DNA of 64,000 bases from Planctomycetota bacterium (lineage in GTDB: Bacteria; Planctomycetota; UBA1135). The DNA lies in NCBI GenBank assembly GCA_045047305.1, contig JASFYO010000004.1, positions 1 to 64,000 of the forward strand, in the 5' to 3' direction. Shown in pieces: positions 32,751-54,823 of this stretch. The stretch's first letter is position 1. Each line of letters begins with the position of its first letter. The notes under the pieces are model-generated. The model did no database searches. It was not told where the DNA came from and saw only the letters and a list, made by a program, of their open reading frames with translations. A program made the position numbers and the translations under genes.

Positions 32751-33536
32751 TCAGTTAATGAGGTAAAGAAGTGGGAAGAGGAAAATCCAGATGAGGTCAA
32801 CCAAGTGCCAATACAATGCGCCGAAATCTATCGCATTGAAATTGGTGGGGCCAAACTCTCCTTTCATGGTCCTAATTAACAGCCATATCATCAGGATCAT
32901 ACCGATTAACACATGGATTCCGTGTAAACCAGTAAGGCAAAAATACACACCAAAAAAGATGCCAAGTTTCCGACGAAACTCTGGATCAAGATCCCTTACC
33001 GCAACAGTGAACTCACCATTACGGTTGTCCCATGCAGCAGAATGATGCTTCATTTCCGCTGGAACATCGTTCGGGTCTAAACGGAAGATGGTGTTGGCAT
33101 TCCCCGACCACACGGTTCCTTCATGGAACTTGTGCTCATACTCCATTTTCTTAATCGTCATAAACCCTCCTGCGCAAAGCAGGGTGATGACCAAATTCAT
33201 CTTGAGCAGCCCGAGTTGCCCGAGCATGGCGTTACGCACCCCCCAAGCAATGGTGAAGGAGCTCAACAGAAGCACGATCGTATTGAGCGCGCCCATATTG
33301 GTATTAAGAAACTGGGAAGCGTACTGGAAAACCTCTGGGTAGCTCGATCGGTAAATCGCATACGCCACGAACAAAGCACTGAAAAACATAACCTCGGTTA
33401 AAAGGAATGTCCATATGCCAAGTTTGCCGGCGTCGAACTGTTGTTCGAGGCTTTCGAAGTGGTGCGCAAGATGCTTTGGATGATCGTGGCCGTGGCCGTG
33501 ATCATCGCCGTGCGCTGCAGTAGTGGTAGTACTCAT
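32751..33536 (-). CDS. ctaE: Cytochrome c oxidase subunit III
   Basis: GIWTFLLTEVMFF, NTIVLLLSS, LTGLHGIHV, LYWHLVDLIWIFLFPLLY. Confidence 0.93.
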   Translation of the reverse strand: MSTTTTAAHGDDHGHGHDHPKHLAHHFESLEQQFDAGKLGIWTFLLTEVMFFSALFVAYAIYRSSYPEVFQYASQFLNTNMGALNTIVLLLSSFTIAWGVRNAMLGQLGLLKMNLVITLLCAGGFMTIKKMEYEHKFHEGTVWSGNANTIFRLDPNDVPAEMKHHSAAWDNRNGEFTVAVRDLDPEFRRKLGIFFGVYFCLTGLHGIHVLIGMILMIWLLIRTMKGEFGPTNFNAIDFGALYWHLVDLIWIFLFPLLYLIN

Positions 33537-33543
33537 GGATTCA

Positions 33544-35250
33544 CTATGCGGTTGGCTTCACGTCTGCGACGCAAGGGGCATCGGCGCGAGGATTGACTGG
33601 CAGGAATCCTTCTTCCTCACCTTTCCACTCCACCAATTTCATGTCGTATGGATCCCCCACAACAGGTGGATCGATTTCAAAGTTGTGCTCCGGAGGAGGT
33701 GACGGTGTTTGCCACTCGAGAGTGACACCACCCCAAGGATTCGCTGGTGACTTTTTACCCTTCTTCAATGACCACAGCAAAGTGCCGAGAGCAATGAACA
33801 AGCCTGTCATCAAGACCATGGCTCCGAGAGTCGAAGCTTCGTTGTATCCATCGAAGCCTGCACTTTCACCATAGCCAGCGTAGCGACGGGGCATTCCTTT
33901 GGCGCCGCCAATGAACTGTGGCATGAAGGTCATATTGAAGCCTACGAAGGTCAACAAACATCCAATCTTCGACATCATGTTGTCGACCACCACACCATAC
34001 ATTTTTGGCCACCAGTAGAAGATTCCACCGAGGAAACCAAACAAAGCGGAACCCACCATCACGTAGTGAAAGTGCGCAACTACAAAGTAAGTGTCATGGA
34101 AGTAAACATCGGTGCCAAGAGTGGCGAGAAACAGGCCGGTAAGGCCACCGATTCCAAACAGCCAAATGATCGACATGCCGTAAAGCATTGGCGTCGAAAA
34201 CGCAACCGACCCCTTGTACATCGTGGCAATCCAGTTAAACACCTTAATCGCAGACGGAATGGCCACCGAAAAGGTGAGTGCTGAGAAGATAACCGCCATC
34301 AACTCCGATTGACCGGAAACGAACATGTGGTGACCCCAAACGATAAAGGAGAAGATTGCAATCGCGATAGATGAAAGTGCAATCGACCTGTATCCGAAAA
34401 TTGGCTTACGGCTGAAGGTTGCGAACAGCTCAGACATCACACCCATGCCAGGGAGAATCATGATGTACACGGCCGGATGGCTATAGAACCAGAACAAGTG
34501 CTGGAAGAATACTGGGTCGCCACCGAGCTCCGGGGTGAAGATTCCAATATGCATGGTCTTCTCAACCAAAATCAGCAACAGAGAGATACCAATCACTGGA
34601 GTAGCCAGAATCTGAATCAATGCGGTTGCGTAAATCGCCCACAAGAACAGAGGCATCTTGAACCAGGTCATCTCCGGCGGACGCATCTTGTGAATGGTCA
34701 CGATGAAGTTGAGGCCAGTAAAGATGGAGCTAAATCCCAGAATGAAAGCTCCAAGCACTGCGGTGATGACCGAGTTGTCCGTATGACCAGTGGAATATGG
34801 CGGGTAAAAGGTCCAGCCAGTATCTAAGTTGCCGATGAACAAAGTCGTGACAAACAAGATCGCACCGATAATCCACAAGTGGTAACTAAATCGGTTTAGC
34901 TTAGGGAAGGCCACATCTTTTGTGCCGAGCATCATGGGAACCACAAAGTTTCCAAGTGCCGCGGGGATCGATGGAATGATGACGAGGAAGATCATCACCG
35001 CCCCGTGAACTGTAAATGCGTTGTTGTACGCATTCATTTGTTCCGCGGTTTGCGAAGCGAAATCGATGTCACCACTGAGCGTGAGGCGAATCTTCATGGC
35101 GAAGAATCCCCCAAGCATGAAGCAACCGATTACGGACCATAGGTACATTAGCCCTAGGCGCTTGTGGTCGATGGTCCAAAACCACGACATGAACCCTTTG
35201 GTGGCGTTCAGGTAGTTCGTACGATCCAGTGTATTGGTAGAAGGCGTCAT
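33544..35250 (-). CDS. ctaD: Cytochrome c oxidase subunit I, A2 family
   Basis: [21 protein letters not shown] (A2 YS motif), [22 protein letters not shown]-channel Lys in SAIKV. Confidence 0.97.
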
Positions 35251-35258
35251 GGGTTTGC

Positions 35259-36269
35259 CTAGTTCTTCAGCGACTTGATGTAAGCGATGAGGAAACTTAT
35301 CTCATCGTCGGTGAGTTGTCCTGCGAAGGAGTTCATACTCACACCTTCAAATCCAGAAACAATTTTGGCGTTGGGGTCCAGTAAGGATTCCCGAATGTAG
35401 TTGTCATCGACAGTGACAGAAGTGCCATCCGCCAAGGATTCCACCGTTCCGTACTTGCCATTCAATGCTGGTCCAACCTTGGCACTTCCATTTGTGGTGT
35501 GACATGCTTGACAGTTACGGTCAAACAGAATCTTTCCTGCTTCGCTTGGGGGCAATGTTGCCAGGTCTACTTTTTGACTCTCCAACCAAGCTGCGAAATC
35601 CTCTTCGGTCTTCACTACAACTTTGGCAAGCATGCGGGAGTGACGAGTGCCGCAATACTCTGCGCAATAGATTGGGAACTCGCCGAGTTCAGTAGCCTCA
35701 AACCAAAGGTAGGTATAGCGACCAGGGACGACATCCATCTTCACGCGGAAGTTTGGAATGAACAAGGAGTGAAGTACGTCGGCTGACTCCAAGCGCATAC
35801 TGACCGTACGGCCGAGCGGAACGACTAAACCTTCTCCGCCATCATGCATGTCAATGTTGCCACCGAAAGACTCCACGCGTTCCGGATAAACGAACTTCCA
35901 ATCCCACTTCTTGGCCTTTGCCTGAATTTCGTAAGCATTGGCAGGAACCCGACGCACCTGTACATAATCCTGGAATCCGTACCAAAACATGGCGACCATG
36001 AAAAGGGATGGAATCACAGACCACACAATCTCGATGCTAGTCGAGTGATGCGGGGAATCCTCGGGGTTCAACCCCACCTTTCCACGACGGTATTTCACTG
36101 CAAAGATTACCGTTGCTAAAACAATGGCAATAAACGCAAACAGCGAAACGTAGAAGATGAAGTAGTAAAGTTCATCCACCATGCTTGCGCCGCGCGCAGC
36201 TTGGGAGGGGAACCAGAAATCCTCTTGCGTATGCTGAAGGAGTGTAGGAAGTAAGGCAACGGGAATCAT
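35259..36269 (-). CDS. ctaC: Cytochrome c oxidase subunit II with C-terminal cytochrome c (caa3-type)
   Basis: DVLHS, Cu[13 protein letters not shown], heme CQACH. Confidence 0.95.
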
Positions 36270-37099
36270 GCCGCTGTGTTCTTTCGGACTTTGCGTTCGA
36301 GCAAGATGAGTTTGCCAACGAACGCGAAAAGGATCACGGCGACCAAAGTCATCACGATCTTAGTTATCTTCCATGCGTCTCCCACGAAAGTGCCAGATGC
36401 TGCGTCGTATAGAAAACAACGCAAAATCAGAGCATCAACGGTCGAAACGTATTTGGAGGAAGCAGTTTCTGCAAGCGAAAGTCGCAGAGTCGAAGGCAAG
36501 TATTCAATACCATAAAGGTACCGAGCGACCTTGCCTTGCGGGTCGAGGAGAGTAAGTACAGCAGTATGCGCGTACTGACCTTTATCCTCGAAGGAGTTGT
36601 AATGAAAGCCGATGATGTCGGCGAGCCGGCGGATATCTTCGTTCTTGCCACGGAGGAAGGACCAGCCTTCTTCCACTTGAGGACGATCGTATCCAGACAA
36701 TGTTTTACTGCGGAAGCCTGCGGCTAAGTCATCGGACTCGGTTGGGTCCAAACTAACCGTAATTACACGGAACTGCTCGCCTACCGACCATTGGTCCATC
36801 TGGTTCAGAGTGTTCACAAAGCCGCTCAACTGCAAACCGCAAAGTTGCGGACAATTGGCATAGTTCATGGTAAGCACAGTTGGGCGCTCGCCATCAAACA
36901 AATCGCCAAGGCGAACCGTTTCGCCCTTAGAGTTGCGGAACTCCATGTCCAGCGGCACTTGCGCACCAAGCTGTTCCTCGACTCCCACACCTTCCATATC
37001 CTTGCTTTGCCTATCGGCAACTTGCGCGGACAACGGTGCCCCTATTCCTAACGCCAAAGCGACAAGAATACCGAGGGCCGGGTAACGGGAGGTTTTCAT
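36266..37099 (-). CDS. SCO1/SenC family copper chaperone
   Basis: CPQLC (CxxxC), YAH, RYLYG. Confidence 0.9.
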   Translation of the reverse strand: MKTSRYPALGILVALALGIGAPLSAQVADRQSKDMEGVGVEEQLGAQVPLDMEFRNSKGETVRLGDLFDGERPTVLTMNYANCPQLCGLQLSGFVNTLNQMDQWSVGEQFRVITVSLDPTESDDLAAGFRSKTLSGYDRPQVEEGWSFLRGKNEDIRRLADIIGFHYNSFEDKGQYAHTAVLTLLDPQGKVARYLYGIEYLPSTLRLSLAETASSKYVSTVDALILRCFLYDAASGTFVGDAWKITKIVMTLVAVILFAFVGKLILLERKVRKNTAA

Positions 37100-37106
37100 T
37101 TAAAGG

Positions 37107-37349
37107 CTAGCGCGCGTAACGCTTCAGGATGGTTGCGCGTGCCGTTTCAGTGTCCGCAACTTCCTCTGCCGAAGCTGCGTCAGCCTGTTCCACAACCGTG
37201 GCAGCCAGCTTGCGTTCAGAAACAAGTTCCGTATTGTGAAAGAAATCTAGGCCGGTGACGGCGTAAGAGATTGCGATGGTGAGAATGGTTCCAATCAGTC
37301 CAATCCGGACCAAGTGGCCTACGTCGATGTCGTCGTGCTGGGTAGCCAT
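37107..37349 (-). CDS. Small single-TM protein in the act/cta operon (ActG-position)
   Basis: One hydrophobic helix; start overlaps the actF stop; sits between actF and sco. Confidence 0.55.
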   Translation of the reverse strand: MATQHDDIDVGHLVRIGLIGTILTIAISYAVTGLDFFHNTELVSERKLAATVVEQADAASAEEVADTETARATILKRYAR

Positions 37350-38734
37350 TAGATGTTGCGGAAGCGTAGGGACTTAGCCAGCAATGGATCACCGACTGGA
37401 AGAAGTGCTTGCTTGGCGGAACGACGTGCAACGCCGAAGACCATGACACCAAACATTCCAACAACAAGGCTAACCTCCATGATCCCAAATGGGTTCTCGA
37501 AGCCAACTTCGCTGCGATGGTAGTTTGGCATCACCAGCCAATACATGTCGAGGAATTGCATCGTCAACATGTAATAAGCCCAACCCAAAAGGATATTGGT
37601 ATTGCGCTTCACATGCCGTGAAAGCAACCCACCGAACGGGATGATGAGATGGAATACCAACAGACACCAAGTCCAAGTGCTCCATCCTGCGGTGAGGCGA
37701 GCCCCGTAGAAGGCGGTTTCCTCAGGAAGGTTGGCGTACCAGATCAACATGAACTGGGAGAAAGCGATGTAACCCCAGAAGAAGGTGAATGCAAACAACC
37801 ATTTACCAAGGTCATGGTAATGCTCATCATGAATGACTTCTGTAAGCAGACCATTTTTCTGACAATACTTTGCCATGATGATGATCCAAGCAACTGAGCT
37901 CAAAAACGCGCCGGCAAAGATGTACACACCGAAAATCGTACTGAACCAAGTTTCATCGAGCGACATCAATAAGTCGAAGGAAGCGAAACTGATGGTAAAA
38001 GCGAAGATGATGATGGTGACAGCACTCTTCCGCTTCACGGCAAGAGTTGGGTCGTAATTTGGAGCCGTATCCTGCTCTACAGACTTCTTATAGAAGTAAC
38101 GCGACAGCAACATCCAAATCAGGAAGTATGCGAGTAAACGCCCAGCAAAGAACTTTCGATTCAGGAATGGAAACTTGTGCTCAACAAATTTCGTGTGTTC
38201 CGCATGAGCAAGTTTTTCCGCATTGCTGTGACCACCCTCGCCGGCATGTTGCTCAACAACAACGCCTTCAACAGCGTGACTTACTTCAGAAACATCTGCT
38301 GCAGCATCATGAGCTACCTCGTCAACTGCGATGACCGCACCATGTTCATCGTGGCCCATGGTTGCCCATTTCCACACGCTAACATCGTCGCTAAAGAGAG
38401 GGACCAAAAGTGGAAGCGCGAATAACGCTACCAATGGCATGTTCGCCATGCTCAATTCTGCCAAACGACGCACAGTCACGCTCCAGTGAGCATTCACCAT
38501 GTGCTGGAGGACGCTGAAGAACATGCTGCCCAAAGTAATGGTCAGCAAGAATGCAAACGCCACCAGATAGGCGAACCAGAAGTGAGTGTGTCCATCTTCT
38601 GCCCCATTCATGAACCCCAGCATGGCACCAACGCCAAGGCCGAGTATGGCAAGAAGCAAGCCTAGCTGGGTCGCCTTTTGCGCGACGTCCCCGGCTTGGT
38701 TATTACCTTTGAGATTAAGTTTTTCGAAACTCAT
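37349..38734 (-). CDS. actF: Alternative complex III subunit ActF (NrfD-like membrane subunit)
   Basis: WSVTVRRLAE, DLLMSL..TWFSTIFG, HDLGK, FSQFMLIWYANLPEE. Confidence 0.9.
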   Translation of the reverse strand: MSFEKLNLKGNNQAGDVAQKATQLGLLLAILGLGVGAMLGFMNGAEDGHTHFWFAYLVAFAFLLTITLGSMFFSVLQHMVNAHWSVTVRRLAELSMANMPLVALFALPLLVPLFSDDVSVWKWATMGHDEHGAVIAVDEVAHDAAADVSEVSHAVEGVVVEQHAGEGGHSNAEKLAHAEHTKFVEHKFPFLNRKFFAGRLLAYFLIWMLLSRYFYKKSVEQDTAPNYDPTLAVKRKSAVTIIIFAFTISFASFDLLMSLDETWFSTIFGVYIFAGAFLSSVAWIIIMAKYCQKNGLLTEVIHDEHYHDLGKWLFAFTFFWGYIAFSQFMLIWYANLPEETAFYGARLTAGWSTWTWCLLVFHLIIPFGGLLSRHVKRNTNILLGWAYYMLTMQFLDMYWLVMPNYHRSEVGFENPFGIMEVSLVVGMFGVMVFGVARRSAKQALLPVGDPLLAKSLRFRNI

Positions 38735-38744
38735 GGTTTCAGCC

Positions 38745-40238
38745 CTACTTCTGGGTCTTGAGGTATTCGATGAGATCCGAAATCTCTTCGTCGGTCAGAG
38801 GGTCACCAGCAAGAACCATGGCACCCTTGATGGCGCCTTGGCGAGTCTTAGCCGGTGGGTCGAGAATCGACTCTTTTATGTAGGCCTCATTTGCAATGAT
38901 GGTGTCGCCAGTATCGAGCGTTAGCTCCGAGCCAAGCAAACCATTCAGCGGAGGGCCGACGAGTGGGGTTCCATTCAAACTGTGACATCCCACACAGGTT
39001 TTCTGCGTGAACAGAATCTCACCGCGAGAGGCTGCACCGAGGGCTGCCATTTCTTCCGGAGAGAGTGCGTTCATCGCTTCGACTTCTTGTAGAACGCGCA
39101 AGTAGGCGATGATGGCCCAGCGGTCTTTGGCCGGGATCTGTGCCGCGTAACTAGGCATGGTGCGACGCCCATTTGAAATGGTTTCAAAGATTAAGCCGTC
39201 CGCCTGTTTTGCAATGAGGTCCACCGTAAGGTTGGTTGGAGGAACCCAAGTTGCGTGGCCGATGTCTGCCAACTTCATCGCGCGATGATGAATCAGACCT
39301 TTGCCTTTTCCATCCTCACCGTGACAAACTCCACAGTAGATTTCGAAGCGTTCTTGACCGCGATCAAGAAAGGCCTCAGTAACTTCCACCTGCGGAGGGA
39401 AGCTAGTGACGTACTCGCCATTCTCTTTCCCCGTTTCTAGAGAAGCGTGAATGAAGCGCTGATCTTGTGCAATGGTGCCAACAAGCTGATCGCGGGTCAT
39501 GCGCCCATCTTCAAACAACGTGGTTTCACCTTGCGCACGGAAACGATCCTGCTTGTCCATGTCTGGAATCAAGTGAACCCGAGGCTTCGTGGTGGTGCTT
39601 CCGTAAGAAGCATAGACCATGGCTGGCGGGACGAGCATCAAACAAGCAACCACCCAAAGGTTACCCTTGATTTTTGCTGGTAGCACACTTGGCTCGCTGG
39701 CCTCGAAGACTTCCTCGACTTGCAGAGCGCCAATCTCATTTAAAAGTGCCGTAGAAGAAGCGAGGTCGAACTTCTTGTCCTTGGCGTGCAAGGCAATGAA
39801 GAAGCTATCGTCGGTGGCGTGGGCAAAACGCTCGTTGCGGAACAACGGGTGGTACCAGCGTGGTAGACGGTTCGCGATCCACATTGAGAAAAAGGCTGTG
39901 AATGCCGCAAACAGAACCGTCATTTCAAAAATGATCGGGATGTTTGCTGGCAACGACCAAACCGGTTTACCGGAAATATCGTAGGTGTAATCCACAGCGT
40001 TGGTCCAATACTGAAGGTACATACCAGCAAGAAGACCGGTGATACCCATGATGAGGATGACCCAAGGCAAACGCGTGAAGCGAATACCCATGGCATCGTC
40101 TAATCCGTGTACTGGGAAAGGTGAGTGGCAATCCCACTTCTTGTAACCAGCATCGCGGACTTTTTCAGCAGCACGGTAAAGCGCAGTGACATCTTTGAAT
40201 TCAGCGACTACGCCGTAAAGTTCTTTGTCTGCAGTCAT
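38745..40238 (-). CDS. actDE: Alternative complex III ActD-ActE fusion (DUF3341 + cytochrome c) with an extra C-terminal cytochrome c
   Basis: SPFPVHG, GKP, FEMTVLF (ActD); PDMDKQ, CGVCHG, MPSYA, DRWAII (ActE); second heme CVGCH. Confidence 0.88.
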   Translation of the reverse strand: MTADKELYGVVAEFKDVTALYRAAEKVRDAGYKKWDCHSPFPVHGLDDAMGIRFTRLPWVILIMGITGLLAGMYLQYWTNAVDYTYDISGKPVWSLPANIPIIFEMTVLFAAFTAFFSMWIANRLPRWYHPLFRNERFAHATDDSFFIALHAKDKKFDLASSTALLNEIGALQVEEVFEASEPSVLPAKIKGNLWVVACLMLVPPAMVYASYGSTTTKPRVHLIPDMDKQDRFRAQGETTLFEDGRMTRDQLVGTIAQDQRFIHASLETGKENGEYVTSFPPQVEVTEAFLDRGQERFEIYCGVCHGEDGKGKGLIHHRAMKLADIGHATWVPPTNLTVDLIAKQADGLIFETISNGRRTMPSYAAQIPAKDRWAIIAYLRVLQEVEAMNALSPEEMAALGAASRGEILFTQKTCVGCHSLNGTPLVGPPLNGLLGSELTLDTGDTIIANEAYIKESILDPPAKTRQGAIKGAMVLAGDPLTDEEISDLIEYLKTQK

Positions 40239-40249
40239 CGTTTTTCCTC

Positions 40250-41635
40250 CTAGTGATCGTCGAGGTGAGGATGAGCCTGAGGCATGACGTTCTTGACTTC
40301 CGAGAGCGCAACCTGTGGCAGGTAGCGACAGAAGAGCATGAACAGAGTGAAGAAGAGACCGAAGCTACCCATGAGGGTGAGAACGTCGACCCAAGTCGGG
40401 CTGAAGTAATGCCAGCTCGAAGGTAGGAAGTCGCGGTTCAACGAGGTGACCACAATCACAAAGCGTTCAAACCACATACCAATGTTGACGAAGATCGACA
40501 TGATGAAAACCAACGGAAGGTTGCGGCGTGCTTTCTTGAACCAGAAAATCTGTGGTGAAAGAACGTTGCAGCTGACCATGATCCAGTAACCCCACCAGTA
40601 AGGACCGAAGGCGCGGTTGACGAAGGTGAAGCCCTCGTAAGCATTGCCCGAGTACCAAGCCATGAAGAATTCCATGGAGTAGGCGTATCCAACCATCATC
40701 CCGGTTGCCATGATCACCTTACACATGTTGTCGATGTGTCGCAGGGTAATCAGCTCCTCGAGGTGGAACATCTTGCGTGCCGGAATCGAGAGTGTAAGCA
40801 CCATCGCGAAACCGGAGAAGATTGCACCCGCAACAAAGTAAGGTGGAAGAATCGTGGTGTGCCAACCGGAAAGTTGCGATGTCGCGAAGTCAAATGACAC
40901 GACCGAGTGCACGGAAAGTACCAGTGGCGTAGCGAGTGCTGCCAAGATGAGATAGACGCGCTCATAGCGATGCCAGTGACGGTTTGATCCGTTCCAACCC
41001 AAGGCAAACAAGCCATACCAAAACCTCTTGGCTTTTGTCTTTGCACGATCACGCACCGTAGCGAGGTCAGGCACGAGGCCCATGTACCAAAAGAGAAGCG
41101 AGACGGAAAAGTAAGTGGAGACCGCAAAAACATCCCACAGCAGTGGCGAACGGAAGTTTGGCCACATCGACATCTGGTTCGGAATCGGGAACACCCACCA
41201 AATCACCCAAATACGACCGACGTGAATCGCCGGGAACATACCTGCACAGATGACCGCGAAAATCGTCATCGCTTCCGCAAAGCGGTTAATGCCAGTTCGC
41301 CAATCCTGACGGAAGAGAAACAGCACAGCCGAAATCAGCGTACCCGCGTGACCAATACCAACCCAGAACACGAAGTTCACGATTGGCCAGCCCCAAGCAA
41401 CTGGCTGGTTGTTACCCCAAACACCAACACCCGTGGTGATGAGATAGACAATCATGGCGCCAAGCACACCCAAGAAAGCGACCGCAATGGTGAAGATGAT
41501 GTACCAAGACTTTGGTGGCTTGGGAGCTTCAAGAACTCCACAGACCATTTCGGTTACGGTGTGAAAATCGTTTTCACCTTGAACGAGTGCTTCAGGGAAG
41601 ATGTCTCGCTCGTCAACAGGAGTTGCATTAACCAT
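40250..41635 (-). CDS. actC: Alternative complex III subunit ActC (NrfD/polysulfide reductase family, quinol site)
   Basis: [51 protein letters not shown]. Confidence 0.95.
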
Positions 41636-44624
41636 GGCTGACGACCTCCTCAGATACCGCGACGGTTTCTAGCGAAGGATGTGGATTGCGGATGCGCGCA
41701 AGGAAGGAGATCCGCGGTTTGTTGTTCAACTCCGGGAGCAGCTTGTAGGCGCGGTCATCGGCCTGGGTCTTGAGAACCCGACTGCCTTTATCGAGAAGAT
41801 CACCAAAGGTGATGGCATCTGCTGGACAGACTTGCTCACAAGCGACCTGAACCACCCCATCTTGAATGCGTGTTTCGCGCTCAGCATTGCGGGTATCAAT
41901 CCGCGCACGCTCGATGCGTTGCACACAGAAGGAGCATTTCTCCATCACACCGCGGGAGCGCACCGTTACGTCTGGATTCGCTGCCATGGCAAGGACTTCG
42001 TTGCCAGGCTTGGCCGCATCCTTGTTGAAGTTAAAGAAGTTGAAGCGGCGCACTTTGTATGGGCAGTTGTTTGCGCAGTAGCGCGTGCCGATACAACGGT
42101 TGTAAACCATGTCGTTAAGGCCTTCCTGACTGTGCGTTGTTGCAGCTACCGGACAGACGCTCTCACATGGTGCCAACTCGCAATGTGCGCAGTTGATGGG
42201 CTGGTTGATGGCCGTTGGATTCTCGACGTCGCCGAGGAAGTAACGGTCCATGCGAATCCAAGCCATCTCGCGGCCGCGAAGCACTTGCTCCTTGCCGACC
42301 ACAGCAACGTTGTTCTCAGACTGACAAGCAATGGTGCAGTTTCCACATCCAGTACAAGATGCCAAGTCAATCGACATCCCCCACTTGTGGTCCGTGACCT
42401 TGTCCTTATCTAGCTCTTGCCACAGAGTCGTCTCTGAACCCCAGTAATCTGCTGCCGCCTTGGCGAACAGTGGATCCTTCTTGAACTCGGACAAGGAACC
42501 TTCCTTCACCAATTCCGGCAGACGCTCTTGCGTTCCTTCCGCACCAATCGCATCCATCGCAAAGTGATCCTGCGTGGTGGCGAGGCGGTAATGGCCTTTC
42601 GTTGCAGTGACGTTCACCGCAGTGAGGTCCATGGCATCGGAACCGCGCAAACTGAAGGTGTTAAAACCAACAGGCTCAATCGCATCGTCGTTGAGACCCG
42701 CGACGTGACCGGCATCGGTGCGTCCGTAACCGTAGGCGAGGGTAATCGAATCGTCGGCGTGCCCCGGCATTAGGTAGACCGCGACCTCGAGGGTGCGACC
42801 GTTCACCTCTAGCTTGACCATGCCTTCGTGGTTTACGCCAAGACGCTTGCCAGTAGCAAAGGACATGAGTGCTGCGTTATCCCAAGTGAGCTTGGTCATT
42901 GGGTCCGGCAACTCTTGCAACCAACCAAGGTTGGCGTAGCGGCCATCGCGAATCGCGAAGTGAGGCGTGAAACGAAGCTCCATGCCCTCCGCTACAGGTG
43001 CGAGGTCCGGCAACGAAGCCAGGCTCACCTTCAATGCAGTGGCGGATGAACCTGCAATTATTCCATCGAGCAGAGCGTTATGCCAAGCGCTATCGGAGAG
43101 GCCAGCGGTTTGGCGAACTATGTCCATCGACGACTCGTGCTTGCCGAGCATCATGGAAATCATTTCGCAAGCCGATTTGCCCTTCCAAAGAGGAGTAATC
43201 AGTGGCTGACCAATCGAGCGAGTGCCGTCGGCGCCAAGGCCATCGGTCCAAGCTTCGAGGTCATGCGCCATCGGCATGTGATAAGAACACTTGCGCGAGG
43301 TCTCATCGCGGTACTCACTGAGGTGAATGCTGTTGGTAACTTTGCCCAGCGCCGCGCCAAACTCAAGGTCGGCAGGCATGGTGAAGGTTGGGTTGCCACC
43401 AAGAATGACGAGATTCTCAATCTCCCCGGCATTCATTTTGCCAACGAGAGCCTTGACCGCGCCCATTCCAGAACCGACGGCGGTTGCAGGGAGGTAATTC
43501 ACGGTGCGACCAAGCGCGCCGATTTGCACGTTCAATGCTGCGACGTGCGCGTGGACTTCTGCAGGCTGGTTCGGGCCACAAGTAAGAACAGCTGCGCCCT
43601 TATTGTGGTTCAGGTCATCGACCAAGGCATCGAGGAAGGCATCGGCGCCTTTCGCGTCAAGCACTGGGGCAGAACCACCATTCAACTTCGCGCTCAGAGC
43701 AGTAACAAAGCTACCGATGTCCGAGGAACGCAAAGGAAGGCGGTGATCCGCAAAACCACCGGTGACGGTGAAGTTTGCCTCAATCGAGTAGATGCGGCTC
43801 ATCCACTCAGCGTTCGGCTTGCGCTTAGCGGCAGCCTCACGGGTTAGGCGAACCGCAGATGGGCCTTCGGTCAAGAAATCGTCATCCAGTGCGACAATAA
43901 TCTTGGCATCGGCCATGTTGTAGTAAGGACGCGCCGCCTGGTTAAAGGCAAGACGACAACCCTCCACTTCGGCGCTGCGGTCGTTAGCGGAGTACTCGAC
44001 CCAAGTTGCCGACGGGTGCGCCTGCATAAACGCAGCCTTCATCCGAGCGATACTTGGAGAAGTGGTTGGCTCGGAAAGAACCGCAACCTTTGCTCCAGCG
44101 CCACTGTTTTGGATGCCGCCAAGTGCAGCCTTAACCGCATCAACGCTGACATCGCTTTCGACGCCATCGGTGTAGCTTGCGGCAGAGCGACTGCGGTCTG
44201 GATCGTAGAGACCCAAAGTTGCAGCCTGCGCGGTTGCCGAAGTCGCTCCCAGCGATTCCGGATGCCCAGTGTTACCTTCAATCTTGGTTGGGTGGCCGTC
44301 GAAGCTAGTCACCATGACGCCTTCCGCAAAACCATCTCGGTTAAGAATGGTTGCGAATGCGCGTGGTGTGCCCGGAACGGTTCCCGGAGTGCGGGAAACT
44401 ACAGGCAGTAGCTTTTCCTGGTCCCAACGACAACTTGCAGTAGCAAGGGCAACTGAAGCACCCATCAACTGCAAAAAGCGGCGACGTGAAGTTTGTGTCC
44501 ATTCCTCTTCAGGCTCAGACTGGAACTCGTTGGCCATCAGCTCTTTGAACTCGGTCGTTTGACCAAGGTCGTTGAGGCTGCGCCAGTAACGTTTCGTAGA
44601 TGCGGAACGATTCATCGGTGACAA
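41628..44624 (-). CDS. actB: Alternative complex III subunit ActB (molybdopterin-oxidoreductase-like + Fe-S domain, Tat)
   Basis: [31 protein letters not shown]; Fe-S motifs [41 protein letters not shown]. Confidence 0.95.
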
Positions 44625-45262
44625 GTAGTGCAGTCTTGGCGTGGGTGGATGTGGTTTTCTTCCATGAGACGTTCGCCTAACTCGAAGCGGTCTTCATGAG
44701 TTTCCCAACCGAGGTCGGTAACCAACTCGCGGGGGCGCAAGTGGGTTTGTGGTTCACGGTGACACTCAAGGCACCATCCCATGGAAAGCGGCTCTTCTTG
44801 ACGTACGCGCTCCATCTGGTCAACGCGGCCGTGGCATTCGACACAACTGACGCCGGCACTCAAGTGAGCGCTGTGATTGAAGTATGCGAACTCAGGAAGG
44901 TCGTGTACGCGCACCCACTCCACAGGCTTGCCCGTTTCCGCACTCTCGAACAGCGGCTTCAAAAGCGGACTGTCGGTGCGAATGCTCTTGTGGCAGTTCA
45001 TGCAAGTTGAAGTTGGAGGGATCGCAGCCATCGCACCCTTCTCAACGGTGTTGTGGCAGTAGCGACAGTCCATCTCCAATTCACCTGCGTGAAGAGCATG
45101 ACTAAATGGGATCGGCTGTTCCGGCGCGTAACCTACGTTGAGGTTCTCAGCCGAAAATGCATAAGCCATCAAAACCACCGCGTAAACGGGGATTAAGATT
45201 GCTGCGAAACCCATGACTGGACGAATCGAATCCGTCCACCGTGGAAAGTGGTAGGCACTCAT
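44612..45262 (-). CDS. actA: Alternative complex III subunit ActA (pentaheme cytochrome c)
   Basis: Five CxxCH (CRYCH, CMNCH, CVECH, CLECH, CTTCH); PEQPIPFSH. Confidence 0.95.
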   Translation of the reverse strand: MSAYHFPRWTDSIRPVMGFAAILIPVYAVVLMAYAFSAENLNVGYAPEQPIPFSHALHAGELEMDCRYCHNTVEKGAMAAIPPTSTCMNCHKSIRTDSPLLKPLFESAETGKPVEWVRVHDLPEFAYFNHSAHLSAGVSCVECHGRVDQMERVRQEEPLSMGWCLECHREPQTHLRPRELVTDLGWETHEDRFELGERLMEENHIHPRQDCTTCHR

Positions 45263-51468: not shown

Positions 51469-52089
51469 CTAGGGCTTGCCCCTCAAATCCAGCTTGAACC
51501 CACCATCGACAGTGTCTACATGCACCATAAAGGTCATCGGAACCCAATTTCCTCGATCTACCCTGGGCTGTTCCCAAACTGGCAACGGCATATCAAGCCA
51601 CACACTCCAAGCGAGCATTCTGCCCAACTGCACTTCTTCCTGGCCCATGTCATCAAAAAATGGGTTGTGAACAAAGGACGGGCAGAAAAACCGATACTCT
51701 CCAGGCCGCACTATCCAGCGTTCAAGCTGACCGGGCGATGGCGGAAAACCGCGCTCAAGTTGAGCTTCTGAGAGCCCTTCCCCCCAGATTTCACTGCCAC
51801 TGCATCCAACTCTAGCGATGGCTCCCTCGCCGCCAATGTCGCTTCCATTTTCATAAGTGATGGTCCAGGAATCAGCAGTCCGCCATCCACCATGAGTCTC
51901 CCACCAAGCAGACTTGTCCGTATCGTTATGTAAGCGAACCAGGATCTCCGGCACGCCGTTGCGTTCATAAGCGGTCACGTCGGCATCGAAGCCACCAAAG
52001 TTACCGCTCTCTTGACCGAGCAAGCGCACTCCCTCTAAAGGCGCTAATAGGTTTGCGAGCAAAGTCGTCAGCCATAGAAACCATTCCAT
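51469..52089 (-). CDS. Hypothetical exported protein
   Basis: Hydrophobic N-terminus from ATG 52089; fills the gap; no recognisable motif. Confidence 0.5.
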   Translation of the reverse strand: MEWFLWLTTLLANLLAPLEGVRLLGQESGNFGGFDADVTAYERNGVPEILVRLHNDTDKSAWWETHGGWRTADSWTITYENGSDIGGEGAIARVGCSGSEIWGEGLSEAQLERGFPPSPGQLERWIVRPGEYRFFCPSFVHNPFFDDMGQEEVQLGRMLAWSVWLDMPLPVWEQPRVDRGNWVPMTFMVHVDTVDGGFKLDLRGKP

Positions 52090-52096
52090 CTGGCCT

Positions 52097-52507
52097 CTAC
52101 TCCTCGATGACGTGAGAAGGATGAGAAACCCCAACCTGACTCCCCGCTTGATCACGCCCTATGAAATCGGCAGCGCCATAACGAATGGATCCGACAAGGA
52201 TTACGGCGACGATTGCGAGAGCGCCTAGGTTCATAATCAGGTACTGGCGTTCTTTGACCCTACCTTCCCAAATGCGAACCACGCTATCCACGGTCAGGAG
52301 AACCAGAAAAAGGATGGAGCAGATTTCGAACAAATCGTACATCGCGGCATAGGATTCCATCTCGTTCGTCGGCCGCAGCCAGGGAAACCCGATCGATGCC
52401 ATGAGGCTAATCACAAACCAGAGAAAGGCGAAAACGATGGCGCCCAATGCCGCCTTACTCATGGGTACACGGTGTCCGACTGGCCAAATTGTTTTTGAGT
52501 CCTTCAT
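52097..52507 (-). CDS. Hypothetical membrane protein (about 3 TM)
   Basis: Three hydrophobic segments; co-oriented with neighbours. Confidence 0.55.
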   Translation of the reverse strand: MKDSKTIWPVGHRVPMSKAALGAIVFAFLWFVISLMASIGFPWLRPTNEMESYAAMYDLFEICSILFLVLLTVDSVVRIWEGRVKERQYLIMNLGALAIVAVILVGSIRYGAADFIGRDQAGSQVGVSHPSHVIEE

Positions 52508-52613: not shown

Positions 52614-54020
52614 CTACGAAACCACAGCTTTGCGCGAGCCCCGGTGAAGGAGAACGCCGAGCCAAATCTTTAGCAGTCGGATGAGGAAGTAGGCTGCAAA
52701 GATCCCGCTCGCTGCAAAAATCCAAGGCCCTGCGCTTGTTATCCAAGCTGGGCTGGCGAGGCCGTCGTAACGGTAGATGGCTGTTCCGGCTCCAGAAATC
52801 GTCAGCCAACCAACCAGGCCGATGACACCCACATTCAATCCCTTGATGAGATGGCAGTACCTTTTGCTGGCGAAAACAGTGGTTTCAACACCCCGACGGG
52901 CTTGGATTTCCGACAACATCCAGGTGATGCCAGCGAAAAGTGCCATGCAGTCAATCCCGATTTCGGCGCCCATTGCGTGCCCCATGACGAGGCGGGTGCC
53001 ATGGACCAGCGAGTTGATCGGCGGAATGGAAAGGATGAGCGAAGTTCCAAGAATGAAACCGGTCCACCATTTCGCTGCAGTGAGGAAAGCCTGGATTCCA
53101 CAGGGAGGAGCTGGCTTGCTTGCCTTCACCATGGCGGTAATGTCCATGATGACACGGAAGAACAAAATGATCTCCGCCATACTCACCACAAAGCTAATCC
53201 ACTTTACGGTGTGGCTTTGTGGAAGGTGATAGGTGTGATGCGCAAAGTTGGTGAAGGAGTTCAACAAGCCAACTCCAAACAGTGCATAGGCCAAACGTGA
53301 ATGCGCATAGCGTTCGCAGTTGCTCAACTTGCAACCGACGTAATACAAAGTTCCGTAGACGAATAAGTTGAAGCTACCGACAAGAGTCCCAGTCGCCTTC
53401 CACTGTAGGCGCATGTCAGTAATCGGTTGGGAGAAGATGTCGGGCATAAGCCAGGCATGTTGTTCCGCAAAGGTGTAGATAAAGAACAGAGTGCCGATGC
53501 CCCACATGGTTGCGTGAATCGGGCGCGACATCAGGCCCTTGCCGAGGTGGCTGTAGAAATTCCACGCGAACATCAGCCAACCGAGCATAATCGGGATAGA
53601 GAAGATGGGGTGGAAACCCATGTACTCTCGGCCTGATCCAACACCAACCAGCATGGTGCAGAAAACGCCGACACCGGCAATCGCCCATGAGATCACTTGA
53701 ATACGCAGGCGTAGCTTTTCTCCACGTGACATCGGGCCGGCAACATCTTCGAAGAAGCGATGCACCACGGCCATGCCTGCGAGCAAAATAAAGACCACCG
53801 CAAAGGTAGTGTGCAGCGGCCGTAGTGCAGTGAACTGAATCCCTAAACCCTGCAGAATGGGCGCCACTTGGGGAATGTAGTAGAAAGCGCCAAGCAGGCC
53901 AGCAAGCACGGTAATGCAAATCGACACCACAGCGCCGCGCATAAAGGTAAGTGTGGCGTAGCGACGGTTAGGGTCGACATCGAGGGAAGTTGGAGGTTTC
54001 ACGACTAAAACTCCCACCAT
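52614..54020 (-). CDS. Divergent NorB-like heme-copper oxidoreductase catalytic subunit
   Basis: About 12 TM; RPLHT, GREY, AHH, SMAE and N..HGT...GHA match cNOR NorB, but helix VI lacks HxxxE and helix X reads HAM. Confidence 0.85.
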   Translation of the reverse strand: MVGVLVVKPPTSLDVDPNRRYATLTFMRGAVVSICITVLAGLLGAFYYIPQVAPILQGLGIQFTALRPLHTTFAVVFILLAGMAVVHRFFEDVAGPMSRGEKLRLRIQVISWAIAGVGVFCTMLVGVGSGREYMGFHPIFSIPIMLGWLMFAWNFYSHLGKGLMSRPIHATMWGIGTLFFIYTFAEQHAWLMPDIFSQPITDMRLQWKATGTLVGSFNLFVYGTLYYVGCKLSNCERYAHSRLAYALFGVGLLNSFTNFAHHTYHLPQSHTVKWISFVVSMAEIILFFRVIMDITAMVKASKPAPPCGIQAFLTAAKWWTGFILGTSLILSIPPINSLVHGTRLVMGHAMGAEIGIDCMALFAGITWMLSEIQARRGVETTVFASKRYCHLIKGLNVGVIGLVGWLTISGAGTAIYRYDGLASPAWITSAGPWIFAASGIFAAYFLIRLLKIWLGVLLHRGSRKAVVS

Positions 54021-54823
54021 GGAAGGTTGTCCCAGAAGGCATCGTCGGTGTCTTCTTCGGCAAGCGCCAGAGCCTCTTCACGATGCTCAGCCAAGAAAGT
54101 AATAAAGGCTTGTACCTGAGCGCGCTTTTTTGCGGACAATCCTGAAGGCGGCATAAGCGGCGGAACCCCCACCTCTAACTTATGCTGAATTTCCTCCGCG
54201 CTTAAACGTGAACCTGAAAGCGATAAATCGGGAGCGCCGATTGCCGATTCGCCGAACAAGACGTGGCATCCGACACAAGTATAGGAGCGGTAAATTTCAA
54301 AACCGCTGATGGCGTCTTCATCGCCCGCGTCCTGCAAAATCTTGTGCACGGCCAAAGTACTTGGGGAATTCAAGGGATTGCCCGTAGCCGATACACCTCC
54401 GCTGCCAGGATTGCGTGCCTGGCCAATACCAGTTTCATTCATCGCACTCAAGAATGCCCACAAAGCCTGCACCTCTTCCGCGGGCAACTCGAACCTCGGC
54501 ATTTGCCCTGTTCCAAGAGCTAACTGATTGGCAAGCTGCGGTTGTTGCAAACGAGATGCAACATTGGTGAGGTCGGGGCCGAGAAATCCGCCAAAGCCAT
54601 ACATTTGGTGGCAAGCCTGACAGTTGTTCGCCAGCCATACGCGTCGCCCAATCAACTCCTCTCCTTCCAGGACACGAGTTTCTGTTGGGTCGGCATAAAC
54701 CAGGTAGGTCTGACTGACGAAACACAGCACGAGGATGCCAAGCATCCAGGCCTTTCCGGTGGGGCTAATCGTTTGCGCCCAAAAGCCTTCCACCAATTTC
54801 GAAGTTTCCTCAGAAGCATCCAT
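54005..54823 (-). CDS. NorC-like membrane-anchored di-heme cytochrome c
   Basis: TM anchor; GRRVW..NNCQACH..G.GG..GPDLT...MP (NorC-like); second CVGCH...APDLS...MP. Confidence 0.85.
   Translation of the reverse strand: MDASEETSKLVEGFWAQTISPTGKAWMLGILVLCFVSQTYLVYADPTETRVLEGEELIGRRVWLANNCQACHQMYGFGGFLGPDLTNVASRLQQPQLANQLALGTGQMPRFELPAEEVQALWAFLSAMNETGIGQARNPGSGGVSATGNPLNSPSTLAVHKILQDAGDEDAISGFEIYRSYTCVGCHVLFGESAIGAPDLSLSGSRLSAEEIQHKLEVGVPPLMPPSGLSAKKRAQVQAFITFLAEHREEALALAEEDTDDAFWDNLPWWEF

Follow-up and report, generated by a model that had tools for sequence, protein, structure and literature searches.

A heme-copper superfamily subunit with a conserved, rebuilt non-haem metal site and a NorC-like partner in a Planctomycetota genome, a possible NO reductase

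The window analysed here, a 64,000-nucleotide stretch from a Planctomycetota bacterium (GCA_045047305.1, contig JASFYO010000004.1, positions 1 to 64,000), carries on its reverse strand a gene pair with the following features, residues being numbered from the ATG at 54020:

54005..54823, reverse strand: NorC-like membrane-anchored dihaem cytochrome c, 272 aa, upstream of the catalytic gene
54608..54622, reverse strand: CQACH, first haem c motif, read from the sequence
54263..54277, reverse strand: CVGCH, second haem c motif, read from the sequence
52614..54020, reverse strand: NorB/CcoN-like catalytic subunit with 12 long helices, 468 aa, or 462 aa from the GTG at 54002
53811..53813, reverse strand: His70, helix II, putative low-spin haem ligand, invariant and aligned with the cNOR His
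53625..53627, reverse strand: Glu132 of GRE, equivalent by profile alignment of the cNOR Ca2+ ligand Glu135
53463..53465, reverse strand: Glu186, helix V, family-specific carboxylate and putative proton relay (residue census)
53367..53405, reverse strand: rebuilt helix VI, QWKATGTLVGSFN (profile alignments and residue census)
53397-53399, reverse strand: Lys208, helix VI, one turn before the place of cNOR His207
53388-53390, reverse strand: Gly211, helix VI, at the place of cNOR His207 (profile alignments)
53376-53378, reverse strand: Gly215, helix VI (profile alignments)
53367-53369, reverse strand: Asn218, helix VI (residue census)
53235..53261, reverse strand: helix VII with Asn254 and the His261-His262 pair, the latter putative non-haem metal ligands (alignment and census)
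53235-53240, reverse strand: codons of His261 and His262
53172..53174, reverse strand: Glu283, helix VIII, aligned with the helix VIII Glu of cNOR, taken as Glu280
52971..52979, reverse strand: helix X H-A-M (alignment and census)
52977-52979, reverse strand: His348, putative high-spin haem ligand
52971-52973, reverse strand: Met350, putative low-spin haem ligand in place of His

The catalytic ORF (52614-54020) encodes 468 aa with zero internal stops and is full length, as an earlier note on this DNA had claimed, whereas the overlap with the cytochrome gene described there requires the ATG at 54020 as start and is lost with an alternative GTG at 54002, located 2 nt past the stop codon of the partner gene. 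The Atlas record of the subunit begins at this GTG, and its cluster comprises Planctomycetota, Chloroflexota and Verrucomicrobiota. The motifs recognised in that note (RPLHT, GRE, HH, SMAE, the high-spin His, helix VI and HAM) agreed in codon position with our reading.

The subunit scored 60.1 bits against Pfam COX1 (PF00115, cut-off 34.8), NCBIfam assigned no specific family, and a search of PDB sequences with the protein or with a 44-sequence profile gave zero matches, the link to solved structures coming only from a fold search. In that search an AlphaFold2 monomer model (pLDDT 88.7, pTM 0.90) matched cNOR of R. denitrificans (4XYD; Z 37.9, rmsd 2.7, 423 aligned), the cbb3 oxidase 8SMR (Z 37.1, rmsd 3.0, 439 aligned) and cNOR of P. 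aeruginosa (3O0R; Z 35.9, rmsd 2.8, 422 aligned), with far lower scores for A-family oxidases and qNOR (Z ~29-32). The protein thus has the 12-helix COX1 fold of a heme-copper superfamily subunit I; of the six invariant His of the superfamily (two for the low-spin haem, one for the high-spin haem and three for the non-haem metal) it keeps four, with Gly at the place of the helix VI His and Met at that of the low-spin His of helix X. In databases such proteins go by the names 'cbb3 subunit I' or 'NorB', so that surveys miscount them.

As in cNOR, a NorC-type cytochrome c gene lies directly upstream. Its product matched the canonical NorC of the same genome (E 4e-13, 23% identity), and the distal Met108 of its first haem c (54500-54502) was invariant in the alignment. 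The Bacteroidota partner cytochromes that were examined are monohaem, in contrast to the dihaem protein here.

When the Asp and Trp shared by helix VI of cbb3 (D-x3-QWWYGHNAV), cNOR (D-x3-RWWVVHLWVE) and this protein (D-x3-QWKATGTLVG) were used as the origin of the count, Gly211 fell at the place of cNOR His207 and Lys208 one turn earlier. One residue is deleted relative to cNOR, and its placement differs between profile alignments, so that the counterpart of cNOR Glu211 is Val214 or Gly215 and that of cNOR Glu215 is Asn218 or Leu219. A register restoring HxxxE was rejected, as no register yields His or Glu. In agreement with the earlier note, the HxxxE...E motif that holds FeB in cNOR (His207, Glu211 and Glu215) is therefore gone, and it was restored by His or Asp/Glu in 0/121 close and 0/120 Bacteroidota homologues, none of which had His in positions 205-221 or Asp/Glu in 207-221. 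Lys208, Gly211, Gly215, Asn218 and Tyr222 follow the spacing i, i+3, i+7, i+10 and i+14, which on the continuous helix of the model would place them on one face, and the family retains a cbb3-like QW..VG frame in this helix. The helix VII position of the cbb3 cross-link Tyr is Ser255/Leu here and Gly stands at the His place, so that the Tyr cross-linked to a helix VI CuB His, characteristic of C-family O2 reductases, is missing.

To see how these substitutions are distributed, homologues were collected by a close search (8000 candidates scored, of which 558 passed E 0.001, with 120 among the matches listed) and by a distant-branch profile search (2702 proteins, 120 among the matches listed, of which the named ones were Bacteroidota). 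The residue census covered 121 close homologues, 120 of the Bacteroidota branch and 82 of 149 diverse representatives, selected by a minimum length of 400 aa (63 Lys-type and 19 His/Gln-type). Lys208 and Gly211 were each conserved in 121/121, 120/120 and 62/63 Lys-type representatives, and Asn218 in 121/121, 120/120 and 63/63. His261, His262, Glu283, His348 and Met350 were found in 121/121, 120/120 and 57-61 of the 63 Lys-type representatives, some of which are frameshifted. His70 and Glu186, the latter overlooked in the earlier note, were invariant throughout (121/121, 120/120, 63/63 and, in the His/Gln type, 19/19). The helix VI and helix X substitutions hold across hundreds of homologues, down to ~27% identity; the helix VI losses and the His/Met low-spin haem are therefore family traits, the haem ligation itself being predicted from the invariant Met350. 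Compared with three relatives, pN was 0.31-0.41 against a saturated pS of 0.73-0.77, indicating purifying selection without decay. Conservation of the helix VI pattern and of HAM among homologues was thus confirmed, and the census supports an uncharacterised enzyme of the superfamily with a conserved, rebuilt non-haem site. Two new ligands proposed in the note did not pass the same census: His265 (HHTYH) is Thr or Ile in the Bacteroidota homologues, and Glu353 (AEIG) is Glu in only 72/121 close homologues.

A sister clade showed a different solution, with His208 in 17/19 (Gln in 2/19) and Asp211 in 18/19, whereas Glu283 was lost (Ala in 17/19), as was Asn254. Glu283 is thus kept alongside Lys208 and lost in the His/Asp clade, where a metal site of three His and one carboxylate is plausible from the residue pattern. 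Judging from this swap of Lys/Gly for His/Asp, position 208 probably faces the metal, where each clade would retain one carboxylate.

In profile comparisons, the Lys type was closest to cNOR (E 2e-31), followed by cbb3 (4e-20) and qNOR (1e-14). In a tree of 29 rows (LG+G4, rooted on cbb3), the Lys and His types formed one clade (100/100) apart from cNOR+qNOR (100/99), and a 53-row quick tree had the same topology. Constraining the family with cNOR alone was rejected (p-AU 0.0008). The family is therefore placed by these trees, which have long branches and few reference rows, as the sister of cNOR+qNOR and not as a cNOR derivative, and the 'cNOR-derived' origin given in the earlier note was discarded.

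That note had also mentioned a cNOR-related clade proposed as an N2O reductase, very likely the 'N2O red' (N2Ored) family of Murali et al. (2024; PMC11214002), a heme-copper family close to cNOR in 293 GTDB genomes. There, and likewise in the preprint, N2Ored is suggested as a possible sulfide- and acetylene-insensitive N2O reductase on the basis of two papers on Flexibacter (Solitalea) canadensis, cited for membrane-bound N2O reduction with these properties. The protein described here very probably belongs to N2Ored, judging from tree place, taxa and one species-level match. As N2Ored does, it lies on the C-family branch near cNOR and has no active-site Tyr. The N2Ored leaves named in PMC11214002 are Flavobacterium, Cloacibacterium and two Planctomycetota, and its Dataset S6 gives Planobacterium lacus as N2Ored=1, cNOR=0 and qNOR=0; Chryseobacterium lacus YLOS41, equated with it by the species epithet, has a Lys-type gene (L115). 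Sediminibacterium and Pontibacter are genera common to the carriers found here and the N2Ored genomes of that paper, although Sediminibacterium sp. C3 was not among the family matches listed. None of the accessions listed in PMC11214002 occurred in the 10 family clusters looked up. Pontibacter fetidus, which we take to be sp010119545, is a probable second species-level match. The family is thus already named in print as a putative enzyme, and the protein here is a further member. The passages of PMC11214002 on these enzymes mention neither the Lys/Gly/Met site nor the His/Asp sister clade and name gNOR as the sole family without an active-site His, although the supplement may describe the active site. 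A search of the open-access literature found no biochemical study of N2Ored; subscription journals and the supplement may hold more.

The genome under study (87.7% complete) encodes four heme-copper subunits: an A-family oxidase, a cbb3 oxidase, the family protein and a canonical cNOR. The absence of nirK, nirS and nosZ from the window, as the earlier note had it, was confirmed, and norQ/norD were not seen among the ORF lists for 28-64 kb of it; elsewhere, however, contig C44 carries norR-norC-norB-norQ-norD-nirK-FGE-SCO, with the canonical NorCB copy at L001:6571-8647. In the 87.7% of the genome at hand, nosZ, nosD, nirS and nrfA were not found.

Within its own phylum the family was present in 24/301 genomes. 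Compared with non-carriers, carriers more often had nosZ (4/24 vs. 13/277), nirK or nirS (4/24 vs. 14/277) and another NOR (11/24 vs. 40/277), related genomes in these counts not being independent, and 9/24 carriers were devoid of any nir, nor or nos gene. Dependence of the family on cbb3 was rejected, as ccoN exceeded its cut-off in 5/23 own-phylum carriers. In 20 own-phylum loci the cytochrome was the sole recurrent direct neighbour.

For the Bacteroidota, the best 80 of 579 matches gave 80 loci, and 40 carriers chosen for longer contigs, a query-biased sample, were tested for other genes. Of these, 38/40 had nosZ, a gene common in Bacteroidota generally (PMC12569097), 13 had nirK (one partial), three cNOR, two a canonical qNOR and eight a His-Asn qNOR variant. 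With two queries, at least 27/40 lacked a cNOR or qNOR-like gene and 12 distinct genomes had one. All 13 nirK-bearing carriers also had nosZ; a canonical cNOR or qNOR was present in two of them, only the His-Asn variant in three and neither in eight (two queries). A full census of heme-copper genes in four of these eight genomes revealed nirK and nosZ with no other NOR in two (G313 and G336); G331 has genes of the eNOR and sNOR types and G325 an sNOR-like gene that is degenerate, the types being read from Gln/Asn positions in Dataset S1 of PMC11214002. Of the other four, P. lacus was assigned from Datasets S6/S8 of that paper, with nirK and nosZ and no other NOR, and three were left out. Also according to PMC11214002, S. 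canadensis, a family carrier, has nosZ and nosD (Dataset S8), nosZ is present in 4/5 named carriers looked up, S. canadensis included, and the carrier F. antarcticum has nirK and cNOR and no nosZ. Replacement of NosZ by the family as a general rule was rejected by this co-occurrence.

The 80 Bacteroidota loci contained an intact NorC-like gene in 79, Rrf2 in 47, QueD in 39, RIC in 21, nos genes in seven and nirK in four. The gene pair follows nirK-FGE-SCO in L071 and, with one opposite-strand gene between, in L116, and it precedes porin-nirK in L096, contexts that echo the norCBQD-nirK-FGE-SCO cluster of this genome; in L070 it follows nosZLDFY, directly behind nosY. A palindrome, AARGATA-N4-TGTCYTT, was present at the start of 50/80 norC-like ORFs compared to 1/356 'other' Bacteroidota ORFs, with 66 matches vs. 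8-13 in five shuffles, although the pattern was derived from the same regions. It contains TAnnTTTG, the Bacteroidota promoter box. The palindrome differs from the NsrR consensus of PMC1274295. Rrf2 accompanied 35/50 loci with the palindrome vs. 12/29 without it, and the neighbouring Rrf2 proteins have at least three C-terminal Cys, from which we infer a possible control of the operon by Rrf2 in response to NO or redox state, which fits NO and N2O chemistry alike. Upstream of 14 own-phylum operons, the one in the window included, neither this palindrome nor FNR, NsrR or shared palindromes above the level of shuffles were found.

The above results lead us to propose, with about even confidence, that the gene pair encodes a cytochrome c-fed NO reductase (2 NO to N2O) whose metal site has been rebuilt. 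The NorC-like cytochrome and the 12-helix subunit would work as one complex, with electrons passing from haem c to a higher-potential His/Met haem b and on to haem b3, which would be high-spin and bound by His348. His261 and His262 would bind a non-haem metal that is probably iron. Glu283 would move into the room that opens at Gly215, and Lys208, through its amine or a water bound to it, would reach into that at Gly211. Protons would enter from the periplasm via Asp202/Glu186/Lys208, Asp202 being the equivalent of cNOR Asp198, part of the periplasmic proton path (PMC3431322). The enzyme would serve as a low-oxygen NO sink linking NirK to NosZ where another NOR is absent, and as an NO scavenger elsewhere; in this genome it would add another NO sink to the canonical cNOR.

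Canonical O2 reduction is excluded by the missing cross-link Tyr and His, and PMC11214002 takes a missing active-site Tyr as a mark of non-O2 chemistry. According to the same source, several distinct sites reduce NO, among them that of gNOR, with Asp for His (evidence from mimics), and that of nNOR, with His/Met (predicted). NO reduction would explain the company of NosZ, the position in nirK operons and the genomes with nirK and nosZ but no other NOR, and on the side of this reading also count cNOR as closest profile, the fold match of Z 37.9, the absence of the cross-link Tyr, RIC in 21/80 and Rrf2 in 47/80 Bacteroidota loci, and the more frequent presence of another NOR in own-phylum carriers. 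Gene context and co-occurrence thus lean to NO reduction, and the view of the earlier note that the chemistry probably differs from it is not favoured. Counting against NO reduction, Lys is rare as a metal ligand, and Glu211, critical together with Glu280 for cNOR activity (PMC3431322), is absent here; the enzyme would be redundant beside the canonical norCB-norQD and nirK of this genome, where an enzyme reducing N2O would supply a missing step, 20/24 own-phylum carriers have neither nirK nor nirS and 9/24 no nir, nor or nos gene at all, and the gene pair also adjoins nos genes in 7/80 loci. With a canonical cNOR present and nosZ not found, the NO-reductase reading fits this genome less well, and function could differ between the Planctomycetota and Bacteroidota branches.

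The published proposal of a membrane-bound, non-NosZ enzyme reducing N2O to N2 at the haem b3/non-haem metal site (PMC11214002) draws support from the presence of the family in S. canadensis, from nirK and cNOR without nosZ or nosD found in this genome, from the absence of nosZ in 20/24 own-phylum carriers and from F. antarcticum with its nirK and cNOR, and so drastic a change of the site suggests another substrate. We consider it unlikely, and equally so the non-haem metal site that it would involve, made up of His2/Lys/Glu and without a described counterpart in the superfamily, as both nosZ and nosD are present in S. canadensis itself, nosZ occurs in most named carriers and in 38/40 Bacteroidota carriers, and it is enriched among carriers of the own phylum. 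Moreover, N2O is reduced under 33% acetylene by a Schinkia strain whose NosZ belongs to clade II (PMC13274427), so that acetylene resistance alone does not point to a new enzyme. A role in protection, as a scavenger of O2 or peroxide or a redox valve for O2- and NO-sensitive NosZ and Fe-S proteins, would agree with a fold as near to cbb3 as to cNOR, the cbb3-like frame of helix VI, the near-universal company of nosZ in Bacteroidota and the neighbouring Cys-bearing Rrf2, but we judge it distinctly improbable, since the cross-link Tyr and its His partner, both needed for four-electron O2 reduction, are missing and carriers usually already have A- and/or C-family oxidases.

Of similarly low probability is a haem-centred oxidoreductase that has lost the non-haem metal and turns nitrite into NO or NO into nitrite. 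Lys208, His261, His262 and the Asn residues would then form an anion-binding, proton-donating distal pocket, comparable to the basic distal pockets of other nitrite reductases, and the high-potential His/Met haem would suit the nitrite/NO couple. The shift of helix VI from two carboxylates to Lys with two His left, the lack of a norQ/norD-like chaperone cluster among recurrent neighbours, and the 20/24 own-phylum carriers without nirK/nirS and 11 with another NOR agree with it; against it, some cNORs insert FeB without NorQD, the His/Asp sister clade resembles a metal site, the gene pair adjoins nirK in several loci, and NO would often be made without a known sink in the at least 27/40 Bacteroidota carriers that lack a cNOR or qNOR-like gene. 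Finally, it is hardly credible that the gene is a NorB copy that has decayed or lost catalysis, or that it reflects a sequencing error: residues essential in cNOR are gone and one relative (G090) seems split into two pieces, but invariance over hundreds of homologues, to ~27% identity, together with purifying selection, refutes decay or error as the origin of the substitutions, and the partner gene is intact in nearly all Bacteroidota loci.

Whether the family makes or destroys N2O changes the scoring of genomes as sources or sinks of this greenhouse gas. As an NO reductase, it might carry out the step that is missing from genomes having nir and nosZ without nor, a class that comprises 9% of Bacteroidota denitrifier genomes in PMC12569097 and is left unexplained there, its Nor list containing seven families with N2Ored not among them. 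As an N2O reductase, it would be an enzyme outside the NosZ family and, across hundreds of genomes of Planctomycetota and Bacteroidota, a hidden sink of N2O, this nirK and cNOR genome would have a complete path to N2, and the His/Asp sister clade would represent a second putative chemistry. A catalytic site that lacks the helix VI His and has an invariant Lys also probes the minimal needs of a heme-copper site, and the residue census, the His/Asp clade and the cultured carriers (C. lacus, S. canadensis and Pontibacter) make the question directly testable.

Among known systems, N2Ored, as described in PMC11214002, shares with this family the place between the C-family and cNOR/qNOR and the taxa (Bacteroidota and Planctomycetota); no difference in kind is known, although we favour NO reduction over the function proposed there. 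Canonical NorCB resembles the family in fold (Z 35.9-37.9), the NorC-like partner upstream, the helix II His, GRE with the Glu whose Ca2+-ligand role in cNOR is described in PMC3431322, the Asp198 equivalent, the helix VII HH, the helix VIII Glu and the haem b3 His. In contrast, the family protein is only 16-18% identical to solved cNOR structures, lacks His207, Glu211 and Glu215, has a one-residue deletion in helix VI, a putative His/Met low-spin haem and invariant Lys208, Asn218 and Glu186, shows no norQD among the neighbours seen and forms a separate clade; among 20 matches listed from plasmid records there were only canonical NORs, at 23-24% identity. With cbb3 CcoN (8SMR, 3MK7) it shares the fold (Z 37.0-37.1), GRE/GKE, a cytochrome c partner and the helix VI frame D-x3-QW-x6-VG/A, but it lacks the helix VI CuB His and the helix VII cross-link Tyr and has Met where cbb3 has the low-spin His. 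Two further families approach its site, gNOR with Asp in place of an active-site His and nNOR also with a His/Met low-spin haem (PMC11214002); both are B-family-derived and have cupredoxin-type subunits, whereas the family described here belongs to the C-family/cNOR branch and is paired with a cytochrome c, so that these likenesses would be convergent.

The genome of the window carries further respiratory genes besides the pair under study, which comprises the Lys-type catalytic subunit and a NorC-like dihaem cytochrome c:

G000:C44, 4783-14913 (L001): canonical cluster norR-norC-norB-norQ-norD-nirK(+cytochrome c)-FGE-SCO
Window, 32751-45262: genes for alternative complex III and, after them, an A-family oxidase operon, both ordinary

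The two ORFs downstream of the pair (136 and 228 aa; window 51469-52507) gave no Pfam match over the cut-off. Elsewhere in this genome, a molybdopterin oxidoreductase gene contains one in-frame TGA (G000:C7:34840-36114), in a context that we take to resemble that of selenocysteine formate dehydrogenases.

Among the 80 Bacteroidota loci of the Lys-type family (L047-L126), a palindrome, AARGATA-N4-TGTCYTT, was detected upstream of the norC-like gene. It was assigned to no known consensus and is a candidate operator for the adjoining Cys-bearing Rrf2 protein. A qNOR-like gene in opposite orientation was found at 12 of these loci (L066, L067, L074, L083-L085, L087, L094, L099, L100, L104 and L122), 11 of which share the palindromic site. 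These qNOR-like, possibly NOD-like, genes encode HMWAE, and His-Asn replaces His-His in helix VII. A QueD-like gene was present at 39/80 loci, mostly directly 3' of the pair, and a beta-eliminating lyase gene at 21/80 as well as at two Planctomycetota loci (L027 and L044); the linkage of both genes to the pair may reflect shared ancestry.

The His/Asp sister clade (P0222, P0227, P0232 and a subset of P0241-P0270; loci within L177-L190) reads QW-H-x-x-D in helix VI and mostly HHH in helix VII; it lacks the helix VIII Glu, its low-spin haem is of the His/Met type, and a monohaem cytochrome c gene lies upstream wherever visible. Its named members belong to Gammaproteobacteria, Opitutales and Thermoanaerobaculia, and the portions of Murali et al. 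2024 (PMC11214002) available to us contain no description of it.

Unusual architectures were also observed. Four Lys-type proteins (P0146, P0161, P0191 and P0205; 788-824 aa) are fusions to an extra domain. In G090 (C9:50706-52178; L023, L026), the family gene appears as two overlapping pieces, possibly through a frameshift or an assembly error, and a cbb3 gene lies about 7 kb away. L240 (G313) and L242 (G325) encode a C-family-like subunit that has a long N-terminal extension, is about 730 aa in length and reads YMHQGVG in helix VI.

Regarding published counts, F. croceum, C. normanense and P. lacus are scored cNOR=0 and N2Ored=1 in Dataset S6 of PMC11214002, whereas Dataset S8 scores all three CNOR=1, suggesting that some profiles count the Lys-type family as cNOR.
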